Positions 23,901-64,000 of a stretch of 64,000 bases of DNA are shown here, in pieces. Position 1 is the stretch's first letter. Each line of letters begins with the position of its first letter. The notes beneath the pieces are model-generated. The model was not told the DNA's origin, made no database searches, and saw only the letters and a program-made list of their open reading frames with translations. A program made the translations under genes and the position numbers. Source of the DNA: Chrysomallon squamiferum (taxonomy: Eukaryota > Animalia > Mollusca). The stretch lies in contig CM022673.1 in the NCBI GenBank assembly GCA_012295275.1, positions 3,782,001 to 3,846,000 on the forward strand, in the 5' to 3' direction.

Positions 23901-23958
23901 ATGGATTACGTATATTTGCTGGTTTTCTTATTGGCATGCGGCTTCCAGAACGTTCTAG
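23901..23958 (+). CDS. nAChR-like exon 1 (signal peptide MDYVYLLVFLLACGFQNVL-G)
   Basis: ATG, a hydrophobic 19-mer, then a strong donor TAG|GTAAGT in phase 1, which matches the next exon and the usual nAChR exon 1. Confidence 0.82.
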
Positions 23959-24519
23959 GTAAGTAAAATGCATGTTGCATCGCCTCTCTGTTGAGTTAAT
24001 GATATATCGTTCATTAGCGATATTATGGTTTGAACATATTTTGTCTTTTTTTTTTTTCAGATTGTTTTAAATTGTATCCATCATTATATTTGGAGAAATT
24101 ATATGTGTTGTGCTGTAGATGATTATTTCTGTAAGTACGTTAAAATAACAAAACAATGCTAACATTGTCTGCAGATTTGGTAAGTCATGAATATTTTTTC
24201 TGTAAAAGTCAGATGACTCTAGTGCACCACTGTTGGAATATATTCAGTGGAATTGTTCAGATACTAAAACTTATAAATAAATAAATAAATAAATAGAAGA
24301 GAGAAAAAAGAAAGAAAGAAAGAAAACGAAAATAAATCCGAAAATGTCATTAATATTTCGTTATTATCAGTTCATTTGACAGTTTAAGCTTAAGGATCTC
24401 GACAGCTGAATAAATGTGAAATAAATCTAAAAGGTAATTAGTATTAAAAAACGAAAACAAATAAATAAACATAATGGTTTGAAAACAATCAAACGATCGC
24501 AAATCCTTAAAAAATAACG

Positions 24520-24611
<92 letters not shown>

Positions 24612-26041
24612 ATCAAACAGAGGTACCAGCGACAACAAGGTGAATTTCTCAGAGAATGTGTTTTGTTCTCAGGTTTCTGCTCGTACGGAAATACGTTTGT
24701 GCTTTCCACACTGCATGCAGATTCTTCTTGTTAGAATGCCAGGAATACAAGACACAGCAAACTTTCACATATCTGTACTTTGGCAAGCAACAGTTCACAT
24801 CATTTGTTACATAACATTTTCTGTTACCATTACACAGATACACACATAAATATACAAATAATATACACTTCACGCGCACAGCGACACACAGTCACATGTA
24901 TGAATGTATGTATGTATGTATGTATGTATATGTATTTGAATTACCGCACGTATGCAATTTAGATTAGTTCTATCATAATAAAAAATTATTAATAGTAAAT
25001 AAAAACACACCAAAATGTAAATGAAAATAAATGAAATTAAATACGACAAAATAAATATATATTAATAATAATAATAGAAAAAATAAGTAAAAACCAATAT
25101 GAAATACAATTCTGAGACAACCCCGATGTTAGCTTGTCAGTTCTGGTTAAGTTTTATCGTATAACGTCATCATCAGTTGACATTAAAGTTCTGTACGTTC
25201 TCTCAAATAAAGATCAGCCTCTGAGACAGATTGAAATTGATTCCAAGGCACGTAGCTTCCAAAGTTATGTCCATCATTTCTCGAGCACTTTACTGTGGTT
25301 TCAATTCTGAATCAATACAACGATACAGACGAAAAGGAGACAAACTTCAGACAAGGAATATATGGGTTTTTTTTCGTGTTTTTTTTCTTCTGTTTTGTTT
25401 TTATCTCTCTTTATTGAAAATTGTTTCCAAGCCAAGACTGTAGCTGTAATATTCGGAATTAGTGACCTGTTTCTATGAAAAGAACTGTAAGTCAAACAAG
25501 ATGAATCAGTGAAGTACTGAATGGTTGGGTTTTTTAACAAAATTTCAAAGTATTTTATTATTAACAGTTATTATTAGCATTGATGTTTTTCTTCCATACT
25601 TTTCTTTTATAATCTTTATGAAACAAAAAACAGGTAGTCGCCATTATGTCCTCTGTTTTTTCTTCAGTATAAGGAATCTTATGTATGTGCGTGTGTTTTA
25701 ATACACATGACAGCATGTACCAGTAACTGAGAAATGACTGAACTGTTTGCTAAGGTCTGATCAATCGGAATCAAAAAGCTTTTATTGTCTTAAGTTTTAA
25801 GGTAGATGAAACGGACAGCTGTTAAACTTATTTGTGGAAATTAAGCGTTATTCATCTTTCGTAGAATCGTGTAATGTACGTTCTGAGAGAAAAATAAACA
25901 TGGCTATAATCCAGCGACTGAAAGAATTATACTCTGTTTTTATTTAGACAAAACTTGTTATGACAGTAAGCTTGCCTTATCTTAAAGATATTCTTTGAAC
26001 TGTGCAGCCCAGTTATTAAGACTATATCAAACATAGGAATC

Positions 26042-26073
<32 letters not shown>

Positions 26074-27077
26074 TTACTTATTTTTATTTTTCTGCATCTT
26101 GGACCAGTCGTGAAAATGGCAGGCACACAGACACGGTCATACACACACAGACAGACAGACACACACTCACACACACACACACACACACACACAGATAGAC
26201 ACAAACACACACAGACACATTCACACACAGATATAAACACACACATATTTAAAATACTGTTCATAAAATAATGGCAGGAACGGGAAATAACATAAAAGAA
26301 CGGAAAAGCAGATATGTAGATTTGAGTCCCGTCTCTTGTTCATAATCGTCTCTGTGCTAACAGACCGAAGTTAACGAGAGATAAATATGTATAGTTTTTA
26401 TACAGCGGTTTATTTGACTAATTATATTTATATAGCTTCTCCGTCGACTGATAAATAAACGTTAACTGATTTCGTCTCTCAGGGAGTCACGAATAACTGA
26501 TTTTGTATTTATCTACGCTGGAGTGTTGGTTCCCTCTGCGCTTATGTGCATATTTATATTTACATGTGAAGCTATGAGTTCATGCTCTGTCTGTCTGTGT
26601 GTGTATACATACATACGTGTATATATATATATATATACACACAGTGGGGTGCAAAAGTATGTATACAGTTATGAAAAAAGAAAACACTTACAGTACTCAT
26701 GGCATTTATTATTGAAACAAAAAAGCTAATATAAAAATGCATGCATTTTTACTAATTTAAATAAAATACGGTTAATGACACTCAAAATAAGAAAAACGAG
26801 TCCAACGAAATTCACTGATGTGATACTACTGTATACCTACTTTTGCACCCCACCCTATATATATATATATTTGTGTCTTTCTTCGTTTGTATATTTCATT
26901 ATCATAATAATAATAATAAAAATTATTATTATTATAATATTGTTATATATTATCATGTTAATCATCATTCTTCTTCTTTCTCTTCTTCTTGTTCATCTTA
27001 TTATTATTATAATTATAATTATTATAATTATTATTATTATTATTTTTGTTATTATTATTATTATTAATATGATTATA

Positions 27078-27115
<38 letters not shown>

Positions 27116-28646
27116 TGTTATTATAACCCAGGTTCCAGTGAGTTTCCCGAGGAGACACTTCAGAGGAAACTCTTCACGAATTACCTCAACACAGCGCGTC
27201 CTTTCACCAACGATTCCTTCAACACCGTGGTGAACTTTCACCTTGAACTCCTCAGGGTCGTAGATCTCGTAAGTAGTGACGTCACCGTAATATACACGAC
27301 CTGGCACACACTGAGGTATTTAGATACAGCTTATAACGTAGACAGCTACTGGTTGTGATTAACATGTTACTTTGTTTGATAACAGAAACTCAAACATATT
27401 AAATTAAAAGCAATTATTACACGTCAAGAAGTTTGTGATTATTTCCGATTTACTGAGAAAAAAATAAATATATACAATGCAGGTGAGCTAATATAAACGT
27501 GAACATAATCGAATTGTTTACACAGAAACATAAACTAATACATTTGATCAAGATATTTTCAACCTTTGAGGCATACATACATACACACATACATACACAC
27601 ATCCATCCATCCATACATCCATCCATCCACACATACATAAAAATACAAACAATACTTACATACATATATACATACATACAACATGCATGCATGCATACAT
27701 ACATACATACCTACCTACATACATACATACACACACATACATATACACATACATACATACATACATACAAACATACACACATACATACATACATACATAG
27801 ATACATACATACACACATATATATATACACATACATACATTCATACATAAACAAACAAACACACACACAGAAATACACATAAACGCAAAGTATAACATAC
27901 ACATATATCCATCATCGTGAATCTATTGCCTGTAGATACAAAAAGATTCAGTTACGTATTCTTACAGCACATTCGTGATGGAAGTTTGGAAGCTGAGTGG
28001 TACGTGAGTACTAATTGGGAGGACGAACGTCTTGCATGGAACCCCAGCGTGCACGGCGGACTGGATTACATCAGCATACCAACGTCTGCTATCTGGACGC
28101 CAAACATCATTCTCGTCAACAGGTATTGTGTGTTTTCAAAGTGTTGCTTAATCAGAGCGTAGTAAAGCGTTGATGTCTTCCAGATTTTCAAATAACTGCT
28201 CTGTGACGTAATATCTGTCTGCAGGATACTGTAAAAGAGAAATAAATGATTAAATATCATGAATGGATGAATGAATGAATAAATAAATAAAGAAATAAAT
28301 ACAAAGAAATAAATGTTAACCAAATAATGGAAATTTGACTAATCAGAATAAAAATTAACAATGGATATTGTATCATGTTGTAAAATAAGACAGCAACTTT
28401 GAAGCCGATAGTAATAATGATCGAATAAATATATGAAATAAAAGGTAAACAAACAAACAAACAAATAAATAAGTAGCTATGTTCTATCGAAAATTTAATA
28501 TTAATTACCAATTTTTTTTTTATAGCAATATAATAATCTAGCAACAAAAAGAACTGTATTAAATAGTAATACTCAACAAAAAACCACAAAAAAACGACGA
28601 AAAACAGAAAAAAACTTGTAAATTATTACTATGATTTTAATCGATA

Positions 28647-28702
<56 letters not shown>

Positions 28703-29166
28703 AACTCATGTCAGAATTTTCAAAAGAAAAAATATTTTGTTATTTAAAGTTTACCCTGTACCACTCAGCTTTTTTCAGTGTTTTATCAATAAAAAATTGA
28801 TTATACACGAAATATTATTTTATAACATATATTTAAAATCCGAAGCTGCTTTTCTTAAATTACAATTCTTTCTTTATTCTTTCTTTTTTTTCTAGTATTT
28901 AAAACATTATTTTAATAATAAATAATGACAAAACTATTTATTTATTATTATCTATTTATTTAATAGTTTATATTTTTATTTTATTTATTTCTAAATTTAT
29001 TATCATCATCATCATCATCATTATTATTATTAATTAATTAATTTATTTATTTTTATTTTTATTTTTAATTTTTATAAAAGCATAAGCCGATAAGGATCTT
29101 TCTAATTATGGTTCGTTACCCAATTTTAAAATATTAAAAAAAAAAAATAATAAAAATAAAATAAAA

Positions 29167-29238
<72 letters not shown>

Positions 29239-31735
29239 GTAGTAATAATAATAATATAAAAGAAAATTTACTCAGTAGTATGTATTTCTCTGTTTCTTTG
29301 TTATTTCAGTGTTGGTAATGAATATTCACACAGCTATGTCGAACTGGCCACAGTTTCGTACACCGGCAACGTCAGTTTCTCACGGACTGCAAAATTAAGG
29401 AGCACCTGCGACCTTGACCTCACGCATTTTCCTAAGGACACTCAGGAATGCCATCTGACCTTTGCCTCGACTTCGTACGACACTCGTGCCCTGACGATTT
29501 CAACGCAGTACGTAGAATACGCGAACACGTCGTTCGAAAACGATAGCGCACCTTGGTCCGTGATGACGGTAACGTTGGAAAGGGAAACAACTCTGATGGA
29601 CTGTTGTCACGAGTACGACTTAATTACGTACGCTGTCAAGATAAAACGTAACTGTTCTTACTGCAAGCATCTGTACGTGATGCCCGTGGCACTGCTGGGA
29701 TTGCTGGTTCCGTTTCAGTTCCTGCTGCCAATAAACTCCAGGGAAAGATCGTGTTTTGGTAAGCTTTAGCGTTACAGAAGGAGAATTTCTGAGATGCATT
29801 AACCTTTTTATGTGACAATGAGTGAAACGAAACGTCAAGAATAACCGACATGGTTAGGGATGAATAGAAAAACTGAGCAACATCAAACCTTGAATCTATT
29901 ATTCCTGCAACAAAACAACAATATCATCAACACCTACAGCTACTATTACTGCTACTACTTAAACTGATGCTAATGCTACTTCATTATTACTGCTAATTAT
30001 TACTCTATCATTATTACTACATTACTGATACAACTACTACTGCTATTACATCTACTACTACTACTTCTGTTACAACTACATGTACAATTCTATATTACTA
30101 TTACTATTACTACCTCTACCGCAGCTACTACTGCACTGCTACTGCTGCTGTTACCTCTTCTACTTCTTCTACTAAAAAATTAAATAAATAATAATACATT
30201 CTTACTACCACCATTACCACAACGTACAGTATTACTATTACAAATTATAATGATGAAGATACCACGAAAGAAAACGTTAGTTTATCATTCTGTCCATACT
30301 GCTATACACTAATATTCCATTAGACTTCCGCGAACATGTATGTTTTGTCTGAACTTATAAATAAATAAATAAATAATAATAACAACCGTGTAAGCGAATA
30401 CTACAGATATCTAAAGTTATAAATGCAAATATAATGCACGTTGTTTTTATAGATTTAATGATTTTTGACTCTGTTTTGCAGTTAGTCGATTTTAAGATGC
30501 GTAAGGTTCAGTATCAGAAAGAGCATCCGTAATGATATTTTTATTATTATTATTAAACAATAACCCCTTTAAGTTTCAAACTAGTGTACGTAAACACACA
30601 TTACGATATGATATGCTACGTCACTTTATTTTATATATATATATTCTTTTTAGTATATTTTTTTTATTTCATACTACTATGCTTTTCTCTGTTAAATCCC
30701 GTTATGCAATATTTATAATTATATCATACATTATATGTCATATCATAATATATTAGTATTATATATTATCGTATCATATCACATTGTAATCTACAATTTT
30801 TAGAAATATTATGGTAATAAGGTATAATATGTCATTTTTAAAGTTACTAACTGTAATATATTGTAAGTATTTTATGGTATGACATCACTTCTTTATCTAG
30901 GTTGTCTCTTACTCATTGGTTGTGTCTTGATGTCGTCAATGCTCCATGACGTCATACCCAATACTTCGTTCCCTGGCCCCAAACTGGGTAAGTAGTGAAA
31001 ATAATAAAAATAATAATAATAAGACATAAATAGTGATGATGATGATAATGATGATAATATATTGACGATAATATAATAATGATGATAATGATATTAATAA
31101 TGATAATGACAATGATAATGATAATGAAGAAAATAACAATAATAATTCAAAGAAAAAAAGGAGAAAAAGATCGTACCAAAGAGATGCTATACTGATCAGT
31201 TATTTTCATCTTGCTTTTTCATTTACTATCACCTTTCTGTCTAACATTCTGCCTGTATGTCTGTCCATATGTATTCGTGCTATTTTGTTATTCCAGGTAT
31301 CTATCATTCTCTCACGATAGTGTACATTGTTATTTCTTTGCTGATAACAATTTCTACTCTTCACTACTGTGACACTTGGAGGGGACGCACAAATGTCCCT
31401 AAAGTGGTGAAAAAGGTCAGTATTAGAGTTCGGTGTGGAAAATAGCCCATACGTATATTCTGTGCTAGTAGCTGGTTATTTAGTTCGTGACTCTAAACGT
31501 TTGCTAATGATAAAGTATGAGAATAGTATAACACAAGTCAGCAGAAATGAAGGAAGGCTGTCATTTGTCTTTCTGTATTTGGTGTGTGCAGCATCACAAC
31601 GAAAAGATAAATAATTGATGTAGATAGGAATTATATGATTAAATAAGCACAGATTTATCACTTTAACATGGTGTTATAAATATTAATAATAAAACATTAT
31701 GTGATAAGTTTGATTAACCATTGTTAAATAGTTCG

Positions 31736-31766
<31 letters not shown>

Positions 31767-31965
31767 GATTTATTTTTATTATTAGAAAAAAATTGTATTC
31801 ATTAAGGATATTTGATTATTATTAGTAACATTCATCTTATTTTTATAATTAATATTATTATTTAAATTTATTATAACAGTGGTTATCTTTGTTTTTGTTC
31901 TTATAGTCTTATTTTTTTAATTATTATTATGATGATGATGATCATCATCATCATCATTATTATTA

Positions 31966-32008
<43 letters not shown>

Positions 32009-32314
32009 CTCTAGATATTTATCGGCGTCATCGGAAGCTTGCTATGCGCAGACACGCCGAGGATACCACTGGCTCTAAATTCCGATGTGCCCATTACGGA
32101 AGTCACCGACGCCGATACGAAGAGTGCCGGACTTGAACACCAACTGGAGAGCGTTCTGTGCATGATGCACAGTATGATTATCAATATGAAAAGAAAGAGA
32201 ACTGAGAAAATATGCCTGCATGAATGGAGAATTATCTCCCTTGTGCTAGACCGGTTTTTCTTCGTTGTTTTCATGGTTGTTTACTTCATTACGACTCTAG
32301 AGTTTTTGGGATGA
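23901..32314 (+). CDS. Divergent nicotinic acetylcholine receptor alpha-like subunit (Cys-loop pentameric ligand-gated channel), complete 7-exon gene, 434 aa: join(23901-23958,27132-27268,27968-28122,29310-29758,30901-30987,31297-31415,32015-32314)
   Basis: All six introns are GT-AG with matching phases (1,0,2,1,1,0). Spliced length is 1305 nt with no internal stop. The product has a signal peptide, WxP loop A, a C-x13-C Cys-loop, vicinal CC, four TM helices and EWxxxxxVLDR before M4. Confidence 0.93.
26642..26855. mobile_element. Tc1/mariner-type MITE (about 214 bp) in nAChR-like intron 1
   Basis: Inverted ends (CA)GTGGGGTGCAAAAGTATGTATACAGT / ACTGTATACCTACTTTTGCACCCCAC (25/26 match), inserted in a TA-rich tract, with no coding capacity. 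Confidence 0.85.
27132..27268 (+). CDS. nAChR-like exon 2 (GSSEFPEETLQRKLFTNYLNTARPFTNDSFNTVVNFHLELLRVVDL)
   Basis: ccag| acceptor and CTC|GTAAGT donor. The ExxLxxxLFxxY...RP N-terminal helix is typical of nAChRs. Not shown in the ORF track. Confidence 0.92.
27570..27880. repeat. (CATA)n/(CATC)n compound microsatellite in nAChR-like intron 2
   Basis: Directly visible. Confidence 0.9.
27968..28122 (+). CDS. nAChR-like exon 3 (HIRDGSLEAEWYVSTNWEDERLAWNPSVHGGLDYISIPTSAIWTPNIILVN-S)
   Basis: ttacag| acceptor and CAG|GTATTG donor. Contains WxDxxLxWNP and IWxP motifs. Confidence 0.95.
29310..29758 (+). CDS. nAChR-like exon 4 (Cys-loop CDLDLTHFPKDTQEC, loop B FASTSY, loop C MDCCHEY, M1, M1-M2 linker LPINSRER)
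   Basis: tttcag| acceptor, TTG|GTAAGC donor and an open frame across 449 nt. Confidence 0.96.
30901..30987 (+). CDS. nAChR-like exon 5 (M2 and M2-M3 loop: GCLLLIGCVLMSSMLHDVIPNTSFPGPKL-G)
   Basis: tctag| acceptor and TGG|GTAAGT donor, 87 nt, phase 1/1. Contains the PxTS...P motif of the M2-M3 loop. Confidence 0.93.
31297..31415 (+). CDS. nAChR-like exon 6 (M3: GIYHSLTIVYIVISLLITISTLHYCDTWRGRTNVPKVVKK)
   Basis: ttccag| acceptor and AAG|GTCAGT donor. A hydrophobic helix is followed by VPKVVK (cf. MPKW/VPxWV). Confidence 0.92.
32015..32314 (+). CDS. nAChR-like exon 7 (short intracellular loop, MA helix, M4, stop)
   Basis: ctctag| acceptor. Ends ...HEWRIISLVLDRFFFVVFMVVYFITTLEFLG-TGA. Confidence 0.94.
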   Translation: MFIGVIGSLLCADTPRIPLALNSDVPITEVTDADTKSAGLEHQLESVLCMMHSMIINMKRKRTEKICLHEWRIISLVLDRFFFVVFMVVYFITTLEFLG

Positions 32315-32346: not shown

Positions 32347-32462
32347 AAAAAAAAAAACCTGCAGAGTTACCAGATGGGCAAGTAACTCGATTTGAGCCAT
32401 TCCCCAAAAGATCTGTTTTCTTCCTTATAAACATGCTTTCTATATAGAGGTAATAGAAAACA

Positions 32463-32499
<37 letters not shown>

Positions 32500-32610
32500 C
32501 AGAGTTACCAGATGGGCAAGTAACTCGATTTGAGCCATTCCCCAAAAGATCTGTTTTCTTCCTTATAAACATGCTTTCTATATAGAGATTATAGAAAACA
32601 ATATTAAAAC
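32347..32610. repeat. Near-identical tandem duplication (period 138 bp) just after the nAChR-like stop codon
   Basis: CCTGCAGAGTTACC... at 32358 and 32496, with the copies joined by a poly(A) run. Confidence 0.92.
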
Positions 32611-33494
32611 AAAATTATTATTATTATTTTTTAAATTATTCAGAAACAACTGTGTTATCTGCTGATTGATTATTGCAGTTAATTTTGGACGTGTCTGACT
32701 TATGTCACGTTATTTTTTACTCTGAGTCTCAACAAAAATTTCTTTTGTACGCACACCTGAAGTGTTGCCACTGTTCAACAAATAGTTTAATTTTTCGTAA
32801 TTATTAATTGTTTGGGTATTTATTTGCTTACGTTTGCTTACGAATTAATAAAGTTAACATCATTTATATTAACTGCTAGAAATATTCACGACATACAGTA
32901 TTTTATTAAAACAATGATAACATAAAATATAAAACAAAAATAATTTAACAAATTCGTCTAAAACTGCCCAACGTATAACCTTTAAATCAAACTAGTTTGA
33001 ATTCTGGAGTTATTTCCCTTCGGACGCATCGATCACCGTATTTCTATGTCGTTGTTTTTGAAAACCGTTAAATAGGTTTTTCAAAACAAAAATGCTGAGT
33101 GGATTAATTATTAAGGACGTGGGAAGTATCCCGTGGGTGAAGTCGAAGTTATTTTATGGCGAATTAATGAGCTTGTCGTAATTAATACATGCTGTTGTTT
33201 CCGAAACTGACCTGTGTTTTGAGACAAACACGTCGTATATCGAAGGGTATCACCTTCAGTCACTCCCGAGCTATTTTCAGTGAAGTTTATTAAACATTTA
33301 CGAAGCAATGACGTAGGTTTCTATGGCTGAAATATAACGCTTGACTGATCACAAGGATAAAAATGTTTACTGCTCAGTTGTTTGAAAAGCTTAGAACGTG
33401 GACACGAAACAACATGTATTATTGAATAAATCCAAGAATTAAAATGTTTTATGTTTGTTATTCTTCTTTTCATTTTGATATCAGTCTCTTTCTA

Positions 33495-49955: not shown

Positions 49956-50318
49956 CTAAAAGTCCCTCTCGTTTTCGTCCGCCAGGTATTTGTCGGTGAG
50001 GTCCCGCTGAACCAGCTCCTTCTTCGTCTCGTACACGGGACTGTAGGCGGGGACGCCATTGCACGGCAGACCTCCGTTCTGCGTCATGGGGAAGCTGTCG
50101 TTGGTGAAAGCTTTGTCTTCGTTCTCCGCAGTCGATCCGTACGTGTGGACCTTCCAGTCGCCGTCCTGCGACAGCGTGTGCTCCGGCTTCCACGTCTCCT
50201 CCTTGACGTTGTCAGCCCACGGCTGCTTTTCGCCGGACGCGAAGATGGCGTAGAAAATGACTCCGAGGAAGTGAATAGTGCTGGAAATCAAAAATACGTA
50301 CTGCCATTCTTGAGCGGC
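49956..50318 (-). CDS. VGLUT: VGLUT last coding exon ([35 protein letters not shown]...TYGST...ENERDF*)
   Basis: EWQYVFLI and [10 protein letters not shown] motifs. cctag| acceptor, 363 nt ending in TAG. Confidence 0.95.
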
Positions 50319-50528
50319 CTAGGATTTTTATTTTTTTAAAAAAAGAAGAAAAAAAAAGAAAAGAAAAAAGAAATAAGTATTTATAAAACAAAGAAAAAGA
50401 AACAAACAATAAGAACAAAAATACAGAGACCGCCACATCAAAATACTGATAATACTGATATATTAATACTGATAATTTTGTTTTTTTTATTTATAGGTCA
50501 GTCAAGAAGAAAAAGAACACATCTGATT

Positions 50529-50627
<99 letters not shown>

Positions 50628-51997
50628 TATAAGAATCAATCAGAATATCGAAATAAATAAACAATCAATTTATCGATTCTTCAGTGAATTGATTAACTGA
50701 CCATTCAAACAATCAGCCATCTAATAATTGTATATATTTTTAAAAAATTGCAATAATTTATTTAACGAATAGGTTTGCACGTAAACGAACATACATATAA
50801 ATAATAATAATAATAATAATAATAATATTTTTCAATCAATATTTACAAATTTATGTAAGTACGTTCATAAATAGACACTTCGTTGTTTCGAATTACTTTC
50901 CAATTAGCTTCAGATCATTTCACCATAATTAATCATGTTAACATCATGTAAACAAACCTTCCGTATTCAATTATTTTACCCAAAGCCGATTATCCCGCTA
51001 AAAAAGACCTTTGACAAGCGAACGAAAAACATAATCTAGGGGTTTTTTTTACGACAAACATCAGCGTTGACAAAGGATTTTTTTTTTTTTGCTCTTTGAT
51101 TTATGTTATTAATGTAGCTTTGAAAACGGGAGTTCATATTATCGCTGAATGAGTGCATCAAAAATAAGTATTGATTGTCCACAAAGCACTACAACATGGG
51201 ATAATTTCCGAAAAGGCTTTGCTGAAATTACTCGCGAAAAGCAGCGGTCAGGGAGTTTTCACTTAATAACTGCTGCGACTTTATGAAATTTCAGTCTCTG
51301 TTATAAGGGAAATAAAAGTGACAGAGATTCGTTTTATTAGCAGCTATGTTCTCTGTTTATTATGCTTGTTATTAAGGATTATTTGTAAGCTGGTCCTTTC
51401 AGAAGGTTAATTTGGAGAGAGAAATACTTTAATAAATCATTTAAGTGATTTTTAGCTGTAAGAAAGGATTTAATTTTTTTATTTATATGTATGTTTTTAT
51501 TATTGTCATTTATTTATTTATTATATATTTATTTTTTAGCTGTAAGAAAGGATTTGTTTTATTTATATATATGTTTTTATTTTTGTTATTTATTTATTTA
51601 TTTATTTTTTTTTCGCTTTGAAGTATGTTAAAATTGACATAATGATAACAATAATTCGCAGTTATACAACAACAACAATAGTAATAATAGTAATAATAAT
51701 AATAATAATAACAGTGATAATAATAATAATAATAATAATAACAGTGATAATAATAATAATAATAATAACAACAATAACAACAATAACAATAACAATAATA
51801 ATAAAAATAATAATTCATTCATTCACTTATTGCTCGTGCTATCTCTTTTCCTTTACACCACCGGTCTAGCTTGTAGACAGCTAACTAGGAATATACGTAG
51901 ACGCATTCACGTATTTAACTTAGTAACTAATCATTTAACTCCTACACTATACGAGTGTCCACTAATATTGGTTTCACTGTATTCTAAAACCACTGAC

Positions 51998-52143
51998 CAT
52001 CTCTCTGCCCTGGTCCTGGTCCTTGGTGATCACCTGGACGACAATCGGACACAACATTCCGGACAGAGTGCCCACGCTGTTGGACAAACCCATCAGAATA
52101 CTGGCGTAACGTGGAGCAATGTCCAGATGATTGACGTTGAAGC
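51998..52143 (-). CDS. VGLUT: VGLUT penultimate exon ([49 protein letters not shown])
   Basis: [18 protein letters not shown] signature. tttccag| acceptor, ATG|GTCAGT donor, phase 1/0. Confidence 0.95.
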
Positions 52144-52152
52144 CTGGAAAGT

Positions 52153-52199
52153 TAATAGTAATAATAGTAATAATAATAATAGTAATAGTAGTAATAATA

Positions 52200-52263
<64 letters not shown>

Positions 52264-52304
52264 TAATAATAATACTAATACTAATAATAATAATGATAAT
52301 GATA

Positions 52305-52341
<37 letters not shown>

Positions 52342-52376
52342 TAATACTAATACTAATACTAATAATGATAATGATA

Positions 52377-52454
<78 letters not shown>

Positions 52455-52496
52455 GTAATAATAATAATAATGATGATGATGATGATGATGATGATG

Positions 52497-52527
<31 letters not shown>

Positions 52528-52600
52528 CCGTGATAATAATAACAACGACGACAACAACAACAACAATAGCAACAACAAATATAATAATAATAGTAATGAT
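52153..52600. repeat. (AAT)/(GAT)/(AAC) microsatellite abutting the VGLUT acceptor
   Basis: Directly visible. Source of the poly-N and poly-I ORFs. Confidence 0.95.
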
Positions 52601-53459
52601 ACTTATATTAAGAACAAAATTGGAAACAAGAGTACAATTTCCCCTTAATTTTCTATATATAATATTATATAAATATATATTTATGTGACTTGCTTTATAT
52701 CTAACATCCTTCACATTCCAGTATCTACTTCTCTGACAACCGAAAATAAAAAGCTTCTTATTTTAATAAAGCAATCTAATAATGAGTAAAATATATATAT
52801 ACATTATTTAACCCCTCTGAACGAATAACACACTTCTGTTCTTTCTTATAATTAAAAAAATAAAATAAAATAAAAATAAAAATCAGTGGGTACTTATCAA
52901 CATTTCTACAAAATGTCATGTTAACAGACCTTTTCAAATATTTAACATTAATATTAAAAAGTGACATTTAGGCTGAGAAAATACAAAATTAGTTTGCCTT
53001 GGCATTAACGTGAACCTTTGGCGCTATATTTGTAATACGACTCACAAGCACAAGGAAAACAATAGTAAAGTTTGCATTGTGATAAAAGTAGGGAACAAAC
53101 TAGTCAGTTATAACATATCAGCTTTTTCCTGCGAAGGTTAGAATGGCGATGGGAGTAACCAGTTATTGTTATTATTCTTTTAATCCTGCAATCATCAATA
53201 GTAAAAAGCTAAATGAAGCTGAACTGTTTATTTTCTCATCTTTCCGCCCACGTAATGCACGTATGTATGTGTTACGTTTTATTTCATTGTTTTGGGATTT
53301 TGTATATTTCTATTTATTTTATATTTGTTTTTGCTTTTTAATTAATTATATTTTTGTTGTGTTTTATTGTTGTTTCTATTTTATTTTGATTTTTCTCGGT
53401 GGATAATGGGAGTGGTAGTATTCCGTTATCAAACAAAACTCTCAGCCTTCATCTGTTCA

Positions 53460-53505
<46 letters not shown>

Positions 53506-54584
53506 GTAGTTTTCCAATTCATATTGTAATGTGAGATAATGAGTTAGTGAATACAATTTTAGAATAATGGCTGAAATTCGATCAAGTGGTGTAGGCGTTA
53601 ACTGTCGCGAAAAGATCAAGAGACACACTTTTAAATCTTGTTAAATTGATTTTCTTGTTTTTGTATGTGTCTAGGTATGAATGTATCGTTAAGTATATAT
53701 GTATGTATGTGTGCGTATGTATGTATATATGTATGTATGTATGTATGTATTTGTGAATGTATGTATGTGTCTGTATGTATGTGTGTCTGTCTGATTTGTG
53801 AACATATCATCATCATCATCATCATTTTTATTATTATTATTGTTGTTGTTATTGTTGTGTTATTATTATTGTTATTATTATTATTATACACGTAGGTATG
53901 TATTCACGTATGGTTTTATGAATATTCATCTTCACTTTATGTCTATATTATTATTATCATGAAACTAATTACCTGTATCTGAACAAATGACTCTGGATTA
54001 ACTTACAATGAACCCGTTCTAAGTATTAATATATTAGCTGAGTGAAAGAAAACAACAACAACATATTCAACCAGGACGACCACCTGACACACAAACACAA
54101 AACTATCTGAGATTCATTATTCTTTAATCCGACCTCGTCACTTCTCTCTCGTCTTAGTTCGTTTGTTTTCTTCCTGTTTGTATTCAAACAGTAATTAAAG
54201 CAAAGTAGCTGTTTGTAAACAAGGTACTGCACATGGACACTTCGAGTTTTCCAATTAACGAAATATATATTATTCACTTCTTCTTCTTGCTCAAAGTAAT
54301 AGCACTGACGGAAGAAATACTACGAAGTCCTATATCTTATTTAACAATGTCGTGTCGGCTGCCGATGTAGTTTGGTATGTTTAATATATGTGTGTTTGTG
54401 TGTCTGTTTGTGTCTATGTGTGTTCGTGCGTTATTTAATTGTAAATGAGTAAAGGGACAATTGATAACTGAACGATGAATTAAACAAGCAATAAAAAGAA
54501 ATAGATACAGTTGCAATCTAAATATCTTATTTTATCTTAAAATATTGATTTGGTTGACGTTGGTAAATTGCTACAGAAAATGTA

Positions 54585-54699
<115 letters not shown>

Positions 54700-56284
54700 A
54701 TAGATATACGAGTGGGTGAATGTGCCTGCATATAAGTGTTAGTTCGTTAATGTTTTTACATGTGTGTATCCCAGACAGATTACATGTATTAACAAAATCA
54801 TACAATATATATGGGGCACGCACACACACGCTTTTTGATTTCTGTTTAATATTTTCTTTCCCTGTTCCCTGTTTGTCAATTTTTCACGCACTCTCTGACA
54901 TCTGCCTGCACGGTCTATTATCGTTATTATTACTGCTTACAAGCTTTTTAAAAACGCTTCAACACTGGTTATGTTCCTTCTGCCAATCAACGATCAACTC
55001 AGTCAAAACTGAAGGACAATTAAAACGGCACTGCACGTCGATGAAAAGCATTATTAACTTTCCTTTCTCTTCTTTTCAGTTTTCAATTCAAAACATCATC
55101 CAAGCAGACAGTTTTATTTTATTAATTTTGATTTCGTATCTCGCTACCAGTTATTAAACTGTCATTCCATTACATGCACGAGAAGAGGAGATATTAAAAA
55201 GAAAGCTCCTGGAAAATAGTCGAACTAATATGTTGTTAACTACATATCCTGTGGTTATTGGGTTTTTTTTGCGATAAAAAAAAAAAAAAAAAAAATGTGA
55301 ACCTCTGTCCGAGGTGATATAACTGAAGTCATCAATAACTCTGCTGATCGGTACTAAACACACAGACAGATCGTTCACTGACACAAATGGATGTCACCTC
55401 GTGTTCCAGAGCTCGGTTTTATTACCCCCAAGTTAGTCTGTTAACATGTTAACATGTATCTAATTTCCCTCTCTGTCCAAACAGCCAAGATCGGTTCTCC
55501 ATAATGTGACAAATGGAACTGAATTGCCTGGCCATTATCCGCAATCTTGGCACATCAACTTTCTGCCTCGGTGATCGTCGGAAGCAAGCCAAATGGCAGA
55601 CAACAAAAGGTCCGAAATTGGAAAAAGCGCGCCAGTTTAATAACGTGCGGCAAGGGAGGTAACTGCGAACGCAGCATCAGTCGCGGCGGAAGCTGTATCT
55701 CTTCATCATGGTTGAAACCTCAAACGCTTTCAGCTGATGAGATTTTGCGCGGTTGAATTGAGAACGATTGCATGGCGACCAGAGATAAAATACGTTTTCA
55801 ATGGCCTGTTGGCTGAGCTCAAATTGACTGGGACTGCAAGCTTGAGCAGGCACAATTAAAACATTGCGACGCATAAACAAGGGATACAGTTTTTATCGTC
55901 TTATTTGGACAAACGAAGCCGTCGTCAAAACAAGACGAATTGAAACGAGATAAATGCAACTGTAAAGTCCGGTTTTATGGCTCACAAAGAAAGCGTTCAA
56001 TAATTAACTGAGTTTCAATGAGTAGAGAATAAATCTCGAAATTAATTAGTTTTTTGCCCTCTGTTTAATTACATGTTTCATGCATATTTTATTTTTGATC
56101 ACCTCGTTAGCTCTTCAGTGTGTCCTTAGACTGATTAAATAGCAACAATAGAGAATAAATTGGGAAATTAAAAAATGAAGAAGAAAAAAGAACAAATGAT
56201 TTAATTTAACTATTTTAAAATAATAATAATAATAATAATTAATATAATAATAATAATAATAATAATAAAATTAATAATAACATT

Positions 56285-56344
<60 letters not shown>

Positions 56345-56684
56345 AAGAATATGACGAAAAAGAAGGAAAGCAAATCATTGTAGTAGCTCTTGTTGAAGAA
56401 CATTTCTTAATTTACGCTAGTAAAAATATTTCTTTTTGTTCCATTGACATATCAAGTGTGAAATAAATCCTTACAGACATCGAATACAATACACTTAATA
56501 TCACCACACAGTTTTTTGGATACCTTCATCGTTGTATCTGGTTACAATAATTAGTTTCTGAATAAATAAATAAATAAATAAATAAAAAATTAGAGAAAAT
56601 AATGAATGTTAAAAACAACGAAATTAAATAATTTAATAAAATAAAAATAATAAAATAGAAGTTTTTTTGGTTTCTTTGACGTTT

Positions 56685-56697
56685 GTCACCAGGTAAC
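56685..56697. promoter_or_regulatory. RFX X-box motif GTCACCAGGTAAC in the VGLUT intron
   Basis: Matches GTNRCC-N-RGYAAC. Function untested. Confidence 0.35.
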
Positions 56698-57620
56698 CAA
56701 ATTCCGCTAATAAAAAAATTTGACTTCGATAGAGGAAAAACCGGTTTCACATTTTTAAAGACGTTTAATGCTTTTCCGAACGCTAAAGATTAAGCTTGGA
56801 AAAAAACGGTTGAATACGTTTTGATAAAAACATCATGTTTCCTAATCGCTGAAATATCGATAAAAACTATTTTAATATGCTGAAAATAAAAGAAAAAGAC
56901 AATGATTTTATCTTTGTCAAAGCTGAGGTTATCAAGTTAAAATCATGAAGAAATGAATATTACCGAAGTTACAAGTTAAATCCAAGCTTTCAGAGTGAAG
57001 TCAAAAGGATATTTTTGAAAATGAAAAACTGATGACTGACAAGATAAAATCGTAAACTAAGTATAACTAATAAACCTGAAGACTAAAAATTAACCGCTTT
57101 TATCAAGAATTTCAATATTAAAAAAAAAAAACATTAACCAAGAATAGCAAAGTTAAAAATGAACCCCAGATTTTTATTTAAAATAATTAAAACATCGTAA
57201 AAATTAAACTATCTAAGAAGTCAAAAATACTAAACTAGGAACACACGTTGATTACTTTTTAAAAAAAATATACAACTTTCATGTGTGAAGTGATGAACCT
57301 GCTGCTTTCAAATTCTCGACTTTTGTGTCGACATGAAGACACAATGCACGTACCTTACCAGATTCAGATCCACCACGACTGACATTTTTTAAGTTCAGTC
57401 CACGAAGTCTCGGTAATTCAGTTACACTTAAAAACATTATACTCCGGTCCATGAACTTTCCCTTCGCTAGCTTAGAGCAAGCACACTAAGTTATTATATG
57501 CTAATGTAATTAATTACTGACACGGCTAATGGCTTAAAAGCACGTACTTTGCGATGTTATCCCCGAACCTAAAACTAATATGAAAAATAATAAAGAAACT
57601 CTTTTAGCAAATACAAGTAG

Positions 57621-57652
<32 letters not shown>

Positions 57653-57932
57653 AGAGGATGGATAAGGAATATAAAAATTCGTCCTAATATTACTTGATAT
57701 ATTAATAAAGCGAAACCACATGACATGGGCGAAGTGAGTTATTATTTGTATGGAGAATTGATTGGCGCTTGGCAAATACCACGCAGAATTCTCTGTTAAC
57801 ATTTACATTTGTTTTGTGTTCGGAAAGCTGTTAGCCTCATTATTTTTCACTTTAGTGCAAGCAAGAATCAAGCGTTCAGTTTGATAATGACGGGGGGAAA
57901 AAGAAGTTAAAAAAAAAAAAAAAAAATTAACG

Positions 57933-57965
<33 letters not shown>

Positions 57966-58595
57966 AAGAAAAAATTAACGAATATATATATAAAAATAAT
58001 AATAAAAAAAAAAAAAATAAAAAAAAAATAATTAAAAAAAATCAATACGTGCGTAACCTTTTTATTAGACCCAGTCTATTGCCACTACAGAGTCCATTAT
58101 TTCGTTCCGCGGCCGGCGTTCCAACGAGCGCTCGCCCTAAGCGCGGGTCAACCTCGCTTGTGACTCTGAACGGAACGTTGTAACGTATTTAATTGTCGCC
58201 AGTCGAATCGAGTGTCAGAAAATGACAGGTCCGGTTTCTTTTTTTGTTTACTTCGTGTCGGGCTCATGTTCTAACTATTGACTCTCACTATTGATTTTAC
58301 CAGTGGGCAAACTCGGAATCTGTCGGCCTAGCTTGCTAACGGAACGAAGACTGTTTGGCCCAGAAGGCTTTGGCAACACCGATAGAAAATTATTGTATCG
58401 TTATATAGTTCCTGATGCGGCTGGTTTTTAACACGATACGTACGCGAGCACAGCCACAAACACGTACACACAAATACACAGTCCATATGTGTTATACACC
58501 CACACCCACACACACGCACGCACACACATATACACACATACATACATATACATGTATATATATAAAAATGAAAATTCGCGAATGAACAATATTAT

Positions 58596-58684
<89 letters not shown>

Positions 58685-59083
58685 CCCCGACATAATTGTG
58701 TACACCAGTTAAATTATAAAATGATGATCTTATATTTGAATTATCAACATGACTGTCCTCCTCCCATTATTCATCATGTCTTCCATACGACAACCACAAA
58801 CACAAATCAAACACAATTCTACATCTGCTATAAATTTCATTACAGCCAAATCAATGTTCCACCTCTTTACGTTCGCCAGTAAGTGTAACAGGTTGTCTTT
58901 AAGGCTCGAGTTCAAGGCGAACGTTCTAAAACGAGTGCCCAGTGCTGATTCAAACAGATTTTAGAAACGCTTGTGTTACTCACTGATCTTTTCCTAAGAT
59001 TTTCCAAACCAGTAACAAAAGTACTGTTAAAGCCTTACATGATGTGAAATATATGGAATCTGTTTAAAAAACGTTATTGAAGT

Positions 59084-59197
<114 letters not shown>

Positions 59198-59855
59198 ACC
59201 TATGTACATACTCACTTTCATCGTAGAAGCAGAGACATTTGACACTAACAATACATTTTAATAATTCAGCGAAAATAGATAAATAAGGAAAGGAAAAGAA
59301 GAAGTATAAATAATTTATATTCAAATCTTTTCCAGTTATTCTTTTTTTCTTTTTCTTTTTTTTTTCTTTGATTCTCATATCCTTCTAACTTTCCTTACTA
59401 CTTTCGCAGCATTTCACCCTTAAATTTCCTTTCAATTATTCTTCTTCTCTGTTTCTTTACAGCTTTTCCCTTCAGTTTTCGACCTTCATTATAGTTTCTT
59501 TCGCTTTCTTTTCTCAATTTCAAACCTGCCAGCAACGCATTTTCTCAGTGGTTCACGTGACATCTGTTTACAACGCGCGTTCCCATTGGATGTGATTGCG
59601 GTCCTGTGAGAAATGTTATTTCTGAACCTTAATCAAGGAGCTGCTAAAAAGAACACAAAGTGAACGCTGACACAAGACATCTCCGCCACAGATCAGCTGA
59701 ACCGTCTTTTGTCGTCTGGGCTGTCATCTGCAGGTTTCTGCAATCCTGGGTTAATTTAAGAAAGTCTTATTATTTAATCTTTTCTTTTTTTTCTTGCTTC
59801 TTCTTACGTCTTTGGACTCTGGGTACAAATTCATCGATTTGAACTGTATTTTTAC

Positions 59856-59944
59856 GCGGATGAATACGTGGTGGTCTGTATTGTGCCTTTAATTACTGGT
59901 GCGGATGAATATGTGTGGTCTGCATTGTGCCTTTAATTACTGGT
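59856..59944. repeat. Tandem duplication of about 45 bp
   Basis: GCGGATGAATA..GTGGTCTG.ATTGTGCCTTTAATTACTGGT occurs twice. Confidence 0.88.
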
Positions 59945-60931
59945 GTAGACTTAACAAGGAAAAAAAGAAGAAAAAAGAAGAACATCTGTTCACTGCACGA
60001 AATAAGTCAAACATTGTATGTTCCGTGTTCTTTTCAGCACTAATTAAAATAATTTTGCTTATTTATATAAAAGTTCTCTGCTAGGTTATTACGTTCGTGT
60101 CCAAGGGTAAAAATGTACTTTGTTAAGGAGAATAACTGTGTGTGTGTGTGTGAGTATGTGTGTGTGTGTGTGTGTGTATATGTATGTATACATATGTATA
60201 TATATATATATATATAGTACTAAATATATTAACTTAAATAGCAGCCTGCGAGTGATTACCTTAAATTTATAAGGATAAACTATAAAAATACCTTCACTGT
60301 TATGGGAAATTATTACAATTTTTTAATGGTTACAAATATTTCCGACAGCAGAAATAATTCTTCATTAATATATATATCTTAATCTAATTTAATGGTTACA
60401 AATATTTGCCAGAACGGAAATCACTTTTCGTTAATATACATGTAACACATCTCAATTGCCTGATTAATTTATCTTTGAAATAACTCACGTGATACGATTC
60501 TGCAAGACCAGATCCCGATTTAATCTGAATTAAATCCATTTAATTCTGTTTATTAGGGCTTATCCGAGTGCGATTTTTCTCAAAAGAACTTTATTAACAG
60601 ACGCTATAGAATCTTCTCTAAGTTCTGGCAAAGGCCTGGGGGGCAAAGAGGAAGAGTCTAAGAACCGCAAACATCATTAAGGCACCACGGAAGCAGGAAG
60701 AGATTAAAATTTGAGCCGATTTTATTTGTAACGTGTTTGTAATCTTTTTCTCTGTTTGTCGAGGAATTTTGAAAGATTATAGGGTTGAACACGGCACGGT
60801 TTTGGTTTGAATTGTCGTGTGAAATCGTCTTTTTTTTTTAAACTTGTGTATGTACACTCTGATATAAAACAGACAAAAAGAAAGATGTATAATCCGTAAT
60901 GTGAAGAAGGTTAATAATAACAGCAATAATA

Positions 60932-60976
<45 letters not shown>

Positions 60977-60979
60977 ATG

Positions 60980-61041
<62 letters not shown>

Positions 61042-61663
61042 CTGTATTCATAACTTTACTTGGGACTTTTTAAATTCATTTAAAACATTCAAAAATAATT
61101 TTTTCTTTGATGGATTTTGTAAGCTTTGGTTCACAAAAGCTTTATAAATATATTTGTTAAAATAAATGAATAAATAAATAAGACACAAATTTTAAAAAAC
61201 GTAAAAAAAAAAATATATGAAATTATATAACGACAGAAATGAATGGATTTTTTTTCTAGTTAAAAAACGAAAACGAAAAACGAAATCCGGATATTGCAAA
61301 AATGAAGACTATTAGTTTAAAAAAAATAAATTAATAATATGAAAATCAATATGTTAAATGAAAATGGAGATAGGTAATTTAACTTCCAGATATAAAAATA
61401 AGGTTTCAGCATGATGTTATCCGATTTTAATTTATTTCTGAAGATTCTTAAAACCCCCTCGCTGTAAGTTAATTATGTTCAGCAGTCAGTGGAAACGTGT
61501 TTTCAAAAGCATATTGTTGTTGCATATTTGAAGAGGATATTACAAAATACGTAGTACAAAAAGTAAAAACTTCATTATTATTGAAAAAAAGTTGTTCTCT
61601 AACTGGTGCTTCATAATATATAAAGTAAGAGAGGAAATGGAGAAAGAGAGGAAGAAGGACAGG

Positions 61664-61776
<113 letters not shown>

Positions 61777-62464
61777 TAAGACAGAAGAACGATACAGAGA
61801 AATAAAGTAATCCTAATCCTAAAGACTTTACTTGACAAAAAAATAATAATAATAATAATAATCAATCAATCAATCAATAAATAATAATAAAAAAATTAAA
61901 AATTAAATAAATAAAAATAAGTAAATAAATAAATAAGTAGATGGACATATAAATAATAATAACAAGAAGAAAAAGAAGGTGAACAACAACAACAACTACA
62001 ACAACAGCAACAACAGCAGTAATAATAACAATAATAATCCAATCACCACAGTCTATCTCGTGTGTACGTATTAAACTACGGTTGTTAATCCACATTTTAT
62101 AAACTACTCCAATCTGTCAACGTCTGCAGATATGACAGAAATACAGTTCTTTTCTGTTCTTCGTGTGAACTACAGACTTGAAATGTAGTGGAATGGATCG
62201 GAATTAATTCTATAACGGTAACATGTCTGGCGGAAGTATAGTGTCATTAAGAACCAGACAGAAGACACAGATGAATGCTATAAAAACGATTAGTTGTTTT
62301 TATCGTATTATTTAATATCTGAATGTAAAGTGACGCATCCGATACAGAAAAATGTATAGAGGAGTTTTTACACACGTATCCGTTATACTGGTTCAGAATA
62401 CATCTGTCATTCTCAAAAGAACGCGATCGAATCTCGTCAAGAGTACTGTCTAGAAACTTTTCAA

Positions 62465-62542
<78 letters not shown>

Positions 62543-62798
62543 AAATGTTGTGGTTTTGTTTTGTTTGTTTAGCCTTCAAATTCAGTATCGTTATCACAAA
62601 TGCTGAATTTCCACGATCTCCATCCTAGACATACATTGCATTAATAATTGTGATTATCATTACGGGCTTGTTTAGATAATATATGTTAACTGTGTATTGT
62701 TTTATTTAACTGTCTGATGTTTTACGTAGCTGTGTATGTCTTTTTTTTTTCTTTTTTTTTTGTAATGAAATTTTGCACTGGTGAAATTCGTGTCTTAC

Positions 62799-62909
62799 CT
62801 GATATGGCAAACCCACTGAATCCAACAGCCAGAGTGAGACAAACGATTGACGTGGCAGTGTCCCGGGTGAAGCCAACGCCCAGCAGGAACACGGCTTCCA
62901 TTCCAAACC
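62799..62909 (-). CDS. VGLUT: Vesicular glutamate transporter exon (GFGMEAVFLLGVGFTRDTATSIVCLTLAVGFSGFAIS-G); the gene continues beyond the right edge of the window
   Basis: GFGMEA and LAVGFSGFAISG are hallmark VGLUT1-3/EAT-4 motifs. tttcag| acceptor, CAG|GTAAGA donor, 111 nt, phase 1/1. Confidence 0.95.
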
Positions 62910-64000
62910 CTGAAACGAACCAGTTTGATAATGATGTTGATGATGAAACAATAATCCTACGATCATCGTGATGATAATACAAGTAATAATAAATAAGATG
63001 AAGAATGAAAATAATGGTGACGTTGGTCGTGGTGGTTTGAAGATGTTGTTGCAGTGATGATGGTACTGATAGTGATGATGGCGATGGCAATGAAGATGTG
63101 ATTATGATGATGATGACTTGGTTGTGATGATGATGATGAACAAGAATGAGGAAAGAATAGTGTAAGTGACGAAAAGGAAAAAACAACAGCAGTGATATTG
63201 TTTTAAATGATTTTTTTTGTTTCATTGGGTGTATTGTTAGTGGTGTTGGTACTGATGCTGAAGTTGTAATCATTATTGTCATCATCATCATAATCATCAA
63301 CATCATTATCATCTATCTGTTGGCTTGACCTTTACACACTGAAGCTCTGTTTACTAAATTTCACTTATTTCAGTATGTCCATAAAAAAAATAATAGTAAT
63401 GAAAATAACAACAATAACAAAATTTATAAACATTTTTTAAAAATGTGTTAAATTAATATTTTGAATTTTTGTTCTGTGTTAAAGGGATTTACGTATACTA
63501 TCTCTTACTAAAGATTGTGAAAATTTAAATTTGGTAATAATCTCTGGCCAGTTAAAAAGCTTTTAAACTTGAATCAATTGACACAGTTTCTTTTATGAAA
63601 TATTTCGTAAGACCCCTTAAATCATTAGGCAGTATTCTGAATTTTTCAATTTAATATTAGATTTGATTTTGAAATTATTGGTAATTTTAAAAATATTAAA
63701 AAAAAAAGAAGAAGAAAGAAAAGAAAAGAAAAGAAAAAAAGAGAAAAAGTAAAGCCCCCCCCCACAGAAGTTAAAAAAAGAAAAAGAATTTAACGAAATG
63801 AAAAGAGAATAAGAGAACGAATGAAAAAAGAAGCATGATGACTGAGGTGATTATGATGATGATGGTGATCATTATCATGATGAGGATTGCTGTTTTTGGT
63901 TGTGGTGTCGGTTGTCTTCTTTAAAAATAGAATGAACTAATAAGAACACAAAGTAATTAATGACTAAGAAATTAGTGATATTAATTAAATATCAGTTAAT

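Follow-up and report, generated by a model that had tools for sequence, protein, structure and literature searches.

Known relatives of the locus

Degenerate alpha subunits of nicotinic acetylcholine receptors have already been published for molluscs, and the gene considered here, found in a 64-kb stretch of DNA from Chrysomallon squamiferum (contig CM022673.1, positions 3,782,001 to 3,846,000; called the window, with positions counted from its first base), joins that known class. In the oyster, Jiao et al. (2019) reported that just 13 of 33 alpha subunits keep all principal sites, while 20 do not, and suggested diverse ligands (PMC6896357). The MolluscaGenes preprint, which distinguishes 15 groups, described clades with binding-site substitutions as well as gastropod sequences resembling the cephalopod chemotactile receptors (CRs) (PMC13174522). 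The CRs, among them CRT1 and CRB1, are derived from nicotinic receptors, are insensitive to acetylcholine and have a fast-changing pocket; they are intronless, tandem, multi-copy and expressed in suckers (PMC11526382). De Gieter et al. (2023) characterized Alpo4 of Alvinella pompejana (PDB 8BX5), a lophotrochozoan orphan that has a cation-type pore, is not gated by acetylcholine and forms a homopentamer, with the aromatic cage kept (F103, W159, Y199, Y205 and W65) (PMC10338036). In vertebrates, alpha5 and beta3 are accessory subunits that contribute nothing to the orthosteric site and yet line the channel (PMC7744819).

The window gene compares with these systems in different ways. Unlike the CRs, it contains six introns and occurs once in the 64-kb window, and its insensitivity to acetylcholine is predicted from its residues. 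Alpo4 is related to it at about the 33% identity level, has a cation-type pore as is predicted for the window gene, and lacks the vicinal cysteines (CC) in the aligned loop C, but keeps the cage that the window gene has lost. The likeness proposed to alpha5 and beta3 is one of role, and orthology is not implied. Alpha5 keeps both the vicinal cysteines and W149. The divergent molluscan subunits named alpha9/alpha10-like belong to the same 19-row group of the tree described below and share a W55 site that is mostly Tyr or Phe, Gly at 4′ and an often hydrophobic 6′ residue in the second transmembrane helix (M2), and a short intracellular loop, although most of them retain an aromatic at the W149 and Y190 sites. 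Closest is a protein of Gigantopelta aegis, XP_041366732.1 (P0003), which has the Cys-loop, a CxxC motif, a 2′ Cys and no cage, as the window gene does; it differs in lacking the vicinal CC and at 10 of the 14 pocket positions, and is known from a database model. No published study of P0003 or of the three-member clade to which both belong was found in the open-access literature, and this clade may sit unnamed in one of the 15 MolluscaGenes groups.

Gene model and loss of the acetylcholine cage

Splicing of the window DNA joined seven exons on the + strand (23,901-32,314) across six GT-AG introns, giving 1,305 nt that encode 434 aa with no internal stop; the exon joins are predicted from the DNA and homology. 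The complete 434-aa open reading frame (ORF) of the initial annotation, which had been made from the letters of the sequence without database searches, is thereby recovered and its gene is real, although the span given for it (27968..29640) takes in just exons 3 and 4. PF02931 matched above its cut-off in exons 3 and 4 and, with the 15-residue Cys-loop C150-C164, indicates a ligand-binding domain; comparison with PDB chains returned nicotinic subunits as the nearest solved relatives. Hydropathy peaks near residues 4, 240, 267, 296 and 408 correspond to a signal peptide and four transmembrane helices, the first three of which (M1-M3) align to relatives. The gene encodes a predicted Cys-loop pentameric ligand-gated ion channel subunit of the nicotinic branch, and Glu at -1′ of M2, in the prime numbering of our own alignment, predicts cation selectivity.

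The cage aromatics are referred to here by their alpha1-numbered labels: Y93, W149, Y190, W55 and Y198. The corresponding residues in the window gene are V115, T171, M213, Y77 and Y219, so that three of the five (the Y93, W149 and Y190 sites) are non-aromatic and just Y219 is left of the four on the principal face. The numbering of W149, and that of E45, F137 and R209, is also used in PMC5832824. In HMMER alignments to the alpha3 and alpha4 chains, T171 falls on the Trp of loop B, M213 precedes CC by two residues, and loop C lacks one residue between CC and its final Tyr; against human beta1 the registers of loops A and D run without gaps. The three substitutions with their codons (GTC, ACT and ATG), the shorter loop C, the last loop C Tyr as the only unchanged cage residue, and the presence of both the Cys-loop and CC (C215-C216) had all been read in the initial annotation, and its registers agree with the solved alpha3, alpha4 and beta1 chains.

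Two of its readings fared differently. Tyr is indeed present at the W55 site, but it is not this gene's own change, as 13 of 19 near relatives also have Tyr and 3 more have Phe; this site was dropped from the account of the cage loss since the wider group has it too. The designation as alpha-type because of CC is weak, given FR and CG at this position in the two closest relatives and the name non-alpha-like given by NCBI to the Gigantopelta protein. Of the features of an alpha subunit, the vicinal cysteines are present and the principal-face aromatics Y93, W149 and Y190 are absent. Human beta1, a structural subunit, has Tyr at the W55 site and Leu at the Y93 site.

For comparison, 174 other domains were taken from the matches of the exhaustive search described below, after removal of 20 cluster-sibling rows and short matches. 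The W149 site is W in 155 of them, whereas 12 have F or Y there and the other 7 a non-aromatic residue; loop C bears CC in 117, only one of which has a non-aromatic W149 site. This sample consists of best matches, is biased to conserved proteins and gives no frequency for molluscs. Within it, the cage loss of the window gene appears unusually complete, and the residues support a principal face predicted to be insensitive to acetylcholine.

Relatives of the window gene

With exon 4 as query, a word-based search of 5.8 billion clusters gave one match among 308 candidates, P0003 (70%), which was the only relative found by the word-based searches. An exhaustive search of 1.84 billion representatives returned 1,964 matches at E up to 0.001, the best being P0004 at 61%; among the 150 matches listed, all besides P0004 stood at 38% or less. 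Judged from these matches, the source animal is probably a gastropod. Forty-three rows picked from an 88-row FastTree were analyzed with IQ-TREE over 297 columns, with P0003 cut at residue 248, beyond which its model is faulty, and P0004 at 139; the tree held no chemotactile receptor. The window gene, P0003 and P0004 grouped together with support of 100/100, and the stem of their clade measures 1.45 substitutions per site. This clade lies within a group of 19 rows (96/94) in which every named member is molluscan, namely Aplysia NP_001267752.1, Haliotis, Patella, Lottia and six bivalves. P0003, called nAChR non-alpha-3-like by NCBI, is 66% identical to the window gene over 241 tree columns and is its probable orthologue, judged from sequence.

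Searches with profiles and structures gave a coarser picture. The clade profile matched Alpo4 best among solved structures (148 bits, versus 124 for alpha3), and CRT1 was absent from the best 60 of 336 PDB matches; with exon 3, CRT1 scored 27.6 bits versus 34.6 for beta1. A structure model of P0003, wrong over M2-M3, matched nicotinic and 5-HT3 chains at E about 1e-27, and one of exon 4 reached Z up to 6.3 (root-mean-square deviation 4.3, 138 aligned residues) with nicotinic, GABA-A and 5-HT3 rows tied, so that the models confirm the predicted Cys-loop fold and nothing finer. Chemotactile receptor chains were not among the shown rows of the structure searches, which does not exclude kinship. 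The JGI metagenomes gave 150 pattern matches and no relative of the clade, the ESM Atlas gave generic PF02931 clusters only, and the 64-kb window contains no further Cys-loop gene.

Some observations concern the relatives themselves. Residues ~249-324 of P0003 (M2-M3) could not be aligned and its model has no counterpart of exon 1, the signal exon, which suggests that the database model is probably mis-predicted. In a bivalve family of the same group (P0012, P0174-P0186) the cage has changed stepwise: 10 of its 14 rows have F or Y at the W149 site, and three other rows, two of them named (Pinctada and Crassostrea), keep W149, have lost CC and have Ile at the Y93 site. A search with P0012 gave 14 matches, 8 of them named and all bivalve; gastropod members of this family were not recovered. 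On a separate branch of the wider group, P0103 (Lottia) and P0024 have also lost both the W149 aromatic and CC. Cage loss may have recurred in the wider group.

Evidence of constraint

The stretch 29,275-29,900 is also represented, free of gaps, in an independent DNA contig (run X1). Seven differences from the window are listed for it (8 in all in the piece table), six of them within exon 4, and all six are synonymous, where synonymous sites make up 23% (p about 1.5e-4, uncorrected for transition bias). No listed difference falls on the substituted codons of loops B and C or on CC; loops A and D lie outside the span of X1. Because X1 differs at six exon-4 sites, all synonymous, the gene is no artefact of assembly and seems to be under constraint. 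The intact ORF, the synonymous differences and two orthologue-like relatives agree with the earlier view of a functional gene. Three RNA contig sets gave no match over 29,275-29,900, which says nothing either way on expression.

Free and fixed positions within the clade

In the window gene, P0003 and P0004, respectively, the W149 site is T, Q and R, the Y190 site M, Q and Q, and the CC site CC, FR and CG; the window gene and P0003 have Y and H at the W55 site and V and S at the Y93 site, P0004 being without loops A and D. The cage loss is a trait of the clade; the replacement residues and CC are not. Pocket identity over 14 positions was compared with that of the rest of the extracellular domain by the Fisher test. 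Between the window gene and P0003, 4 of 14 pocket positions are identical versus 124 of 191 elsewhere (p=0.0095; permutation of the same data, p=0.008), and in none of 14 control pairs was the pocket significantly below background; two canonical-type control pairs of like divergence have all 14/14 pocket positions identical. The same two proteins agree at 15 of 15 Cys-loop residues, at 27 of 31 in the pre-M1/M1 segment and at 46 of the last 63 aa.

All three clade members have the CxxC (C232, C235) right after the pre-M1 Arg, the 2′ Cys C265 and K159 at the F137 site. Elsewhere these residues are nearly absent (C232 in 1/174 other domains, C235 and K159 each in 0/174, C232 with C235 in 0/174, and C265 in 0/167 domains with a residue at 2′). 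They account for 4 of 12 clade-private invariant columns of exon 4, for which shared descent alone may account. In the structure model the CxxC sits where the M1 helix begins. A bulky 6′ Leu in M2 would, from its sequence position, form a five-fold plug in a homomer. The idea that K159 breaks gating was dropped, as F137 mutants of muscle receptors are mild, changing gating 4-fold or less (PMC2151658, PMC5832824).

Interpretation and rival explanations

The window gene would best be read as a non-binding accessory subunit, for which we put the chances at about even; accessory function had already been offered as an alternative in the initial annotation, and it is the freedom of the pocket residues within the clade that raises it to the best reading here. 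The subunit, without an acetylcholine cage, would no longer bind an agonist and would co-assemble with cage-bearing nicotinic subunits in a heteromer, lining the pore and tuning gating or ion flow in the manner of vertebrate alpha5 and beta3, with cation selectivity conferred through its -1′ Glu. Selection would act on folding, assembly and pore and be relaxed on the pocket. CC would be a remnant of descent from a CC-bearing alpha ancestor, and the pre-M1 and 2′ cysteines might perhaps be what the subunit contributes to the pentamer. Across the three relatives the pocket varies, in contrast to a conserved Cys-loop, pre-M1/M1 segment and M4, the principal face is lost, the complementary W55 site is Tyr in the window gene and His in P0003, and there is one copy in the window and one match in Gigantopelta. 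An accessory role is favoured over a receptor for one new ligand because close relatives differ at the pocket sites.

Several points weigh against this reading. The pocket comparison uses 14 positions chosen as AChBP contacts. A significant drop was obtained in just one of the three within-clade pairs, neither the window gene with P0004 (4/10 in the pocket versus 51/91, p=0.51) nor P0003 with P0004 (6/10 versus 63/91, p=0.72) being significant, and among the control pairs only 2 of 14 had a significantly more conserved pocket. Part of the interface is constrained, because Y198, the Ser/Tyr of loop B and the Arg-Thr of loop E are invariant in the clade. K159 is no sign of lost gating or of a dead channel, because the effects of F137 substitutions are mild. 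Diversifying selection, as reported for octopus CRs, likewise makes a pocket variable (PMC11526382).

This last point leads to the receptor for a new ligand put forward initially, which in its fullest form would be a non-cholinergic receptor, a gastropod parallel to the cephalopod CRs, with a pocket changing fast as each species tunes to its own cues. We consider it rather unlikely. Complete loss of the cage is rarer than partial loss (the single exception among the 117 CC-bearing domains, in a sample weighted towards conserved proteins), one pair has a pocket identity under background, the orphan Alpo4 is the best solved match, CR pockets are reported to be under diversifying selection (PMC11526382) and the MolluscaGenes preprint of 2026 puts forward transitions of this kind for gastropods (PMC13174522). 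Nevertheless, a fixed new site should be kept, yet the residues differ among the three relatives, with chemically mixed replacements (T/Q/R; M/Q/Q) that make no common hydrophobic pocket, and the receptor is not favoured for this reason; diversifying selection is possible with only three sequences. The gene is a single copy with six introns and no tandem array in 64 kb, unlike the CRs, and CRT1 falls outside the best 60 PDB matches to the clade profile. The cephalopod framing, with its suckers and statocysts, is likewise a misfit for a gene with six introns, no second copy in the window and a nearest named relative, Gigantopelta aegis, that is a vent gastropod. Sensing might instead depend on cysteines in place of the orthosteric site, with the CxxC before M1 and the 2′ Cys of the pore answering redox, sulfide or metal ions and so modulating or gating the channel, a proposal that we hold to be doubtful. 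It draws on C232, C235, C265 and K159, invariant in 3/3 members and nearly absent elsewhere, on the modelled position of the CxxC at the M1 helix start and on the hydrothermal-vent habitat of the named clade member, Gigantopelta aegis. Equally doubtful is its evolutionary extension, that a gastropod lineage including a vent snail made a nicotinic subunit an environmental sensor independently of cephalopods, giving up the acetylcholine pocket in favour of the CxxC at the gating interface and a pore Cys. With three sequences on a stem of 1.45 substitutions, many residues (12 columns of exon 4) would be private by descent, the CxxC may be a plain structural disulfide, and Alpo4 is unresponsive to hydrogen peroxide or dithiothreitol, though it is without these cysteines (PMC10338036).

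Direct participation in acetylcholine signalling, with the loop D Tyr offered as a complementary face to a canonical alpha principal face, is very unlikely: Y77 is aromatic, and Tyr there accompanies largely intact cages in bivalve and Aplysia relatives, but the Gigantopelta orthologue has His at this site and loop E is without the usual Pro-Pro, with Arg-Thr in 3/3. It is hardly credible that the gene is a decaying duplicate with no present function, as the long branch, Ile at the E45 site where P0003 has Glu, and the RefSeq model of the relative, broken over M2-M3, might suggest; 434 codons run without stop or frameshift, the six exon-4 differences in X1 are all synonymous, and the gene has been retained in three lineages at 61-70% identity. 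The E45 gating site (27,971-27,973) is itself worth recording, as an Asp two residues further might compensate for the Ile.

Features of the locus

Table 1. Exons and binding-site, gating and pore elements of the nicotinic-type subunit gene (window positions).
Feature	Position	Strand	Basis or remark
Exon 1: start codon ATG, signal-peptide-like hydrophobic stretch, GT donor in frame	23901..23958	+	hydropathy peak; join predicted
Exon 2: N-terminal helix, beta1	27132..27268	+	67% identity to P0003
Exon 3: loop D Y77, loop A V115, I67 at E45 site	27968..28122	+	PF02931
Loop D Y77 (W55 site), codon TAC	28001-28003	+	
Loop A V115 (Y93 site), codon GTC	28115-28117	+	
Exon 4: loops E, B, F and C, Cys-loop, pre-M1, M1, M2 start	29310..29758	+	PF02931; structure model
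Cys-loop C150-C164, with clade-private K159 at F137 site (29434-29436)	29407..29451	+	15/15 identical to P0003
Loop B T171 (W149 site), codon ACT	29470..29472	+	Q and R in P0003 and P0004, respectively
Loop C: M213 (Y190 site, ATG), C215-C216, Y219 (Y198 site)	29596..29616	+	
Clade-private pre-M1 CxxC, C232 and C235	29653..29664	+	3/3 clade rows
M2 start: -1′ Glu E262 (cation-type), clade-private 2′ Cys C265	29743..29754	+	
Exon 5: M2 (6′ Leu, 9′ Ile, 13′ Leu), M2-M3 linker	30901..30987	+	
Exon 6: M3, start of short intracellular loop	31297..31415	+	
Exon 7: intracellular loop, MA helix, M4, stop	32015..32314	+	weak PF02932 match, below cut-off

The window DNA is AT-rich, dense in microsatellites and animal. 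Just past the stop codon, at ~32,350-32,612, a near-identical direct duplication of ~125 bases was noticed by eye, which is either a real duplication in the 3′ untranslated region or an assembly slip. On the - strand, at ~49,956-63,312, lies a multi-exon vesicular glutamate transporter-like gene, whose last-exon ORF matches VGLUT2 (E=4.6e-14), with further exons in the ORF translations.

Significance

The degenerate oyster subunits are given no role in the extracts of PMC6896357, and the window gene bears on whether such subunits are accessory or sensory. Its small, apparently single-copy clade offers a clean case, in which three relatives show the residues that are free and those that are fixed. 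If the accessory reading is true, the clade would represent an alpha5-like convergence, of modest interest; should the subunit prove to be a sensor, and particularly one based on cysteines, sensory Cys-loop channels would have arisen a second time in molluscs.

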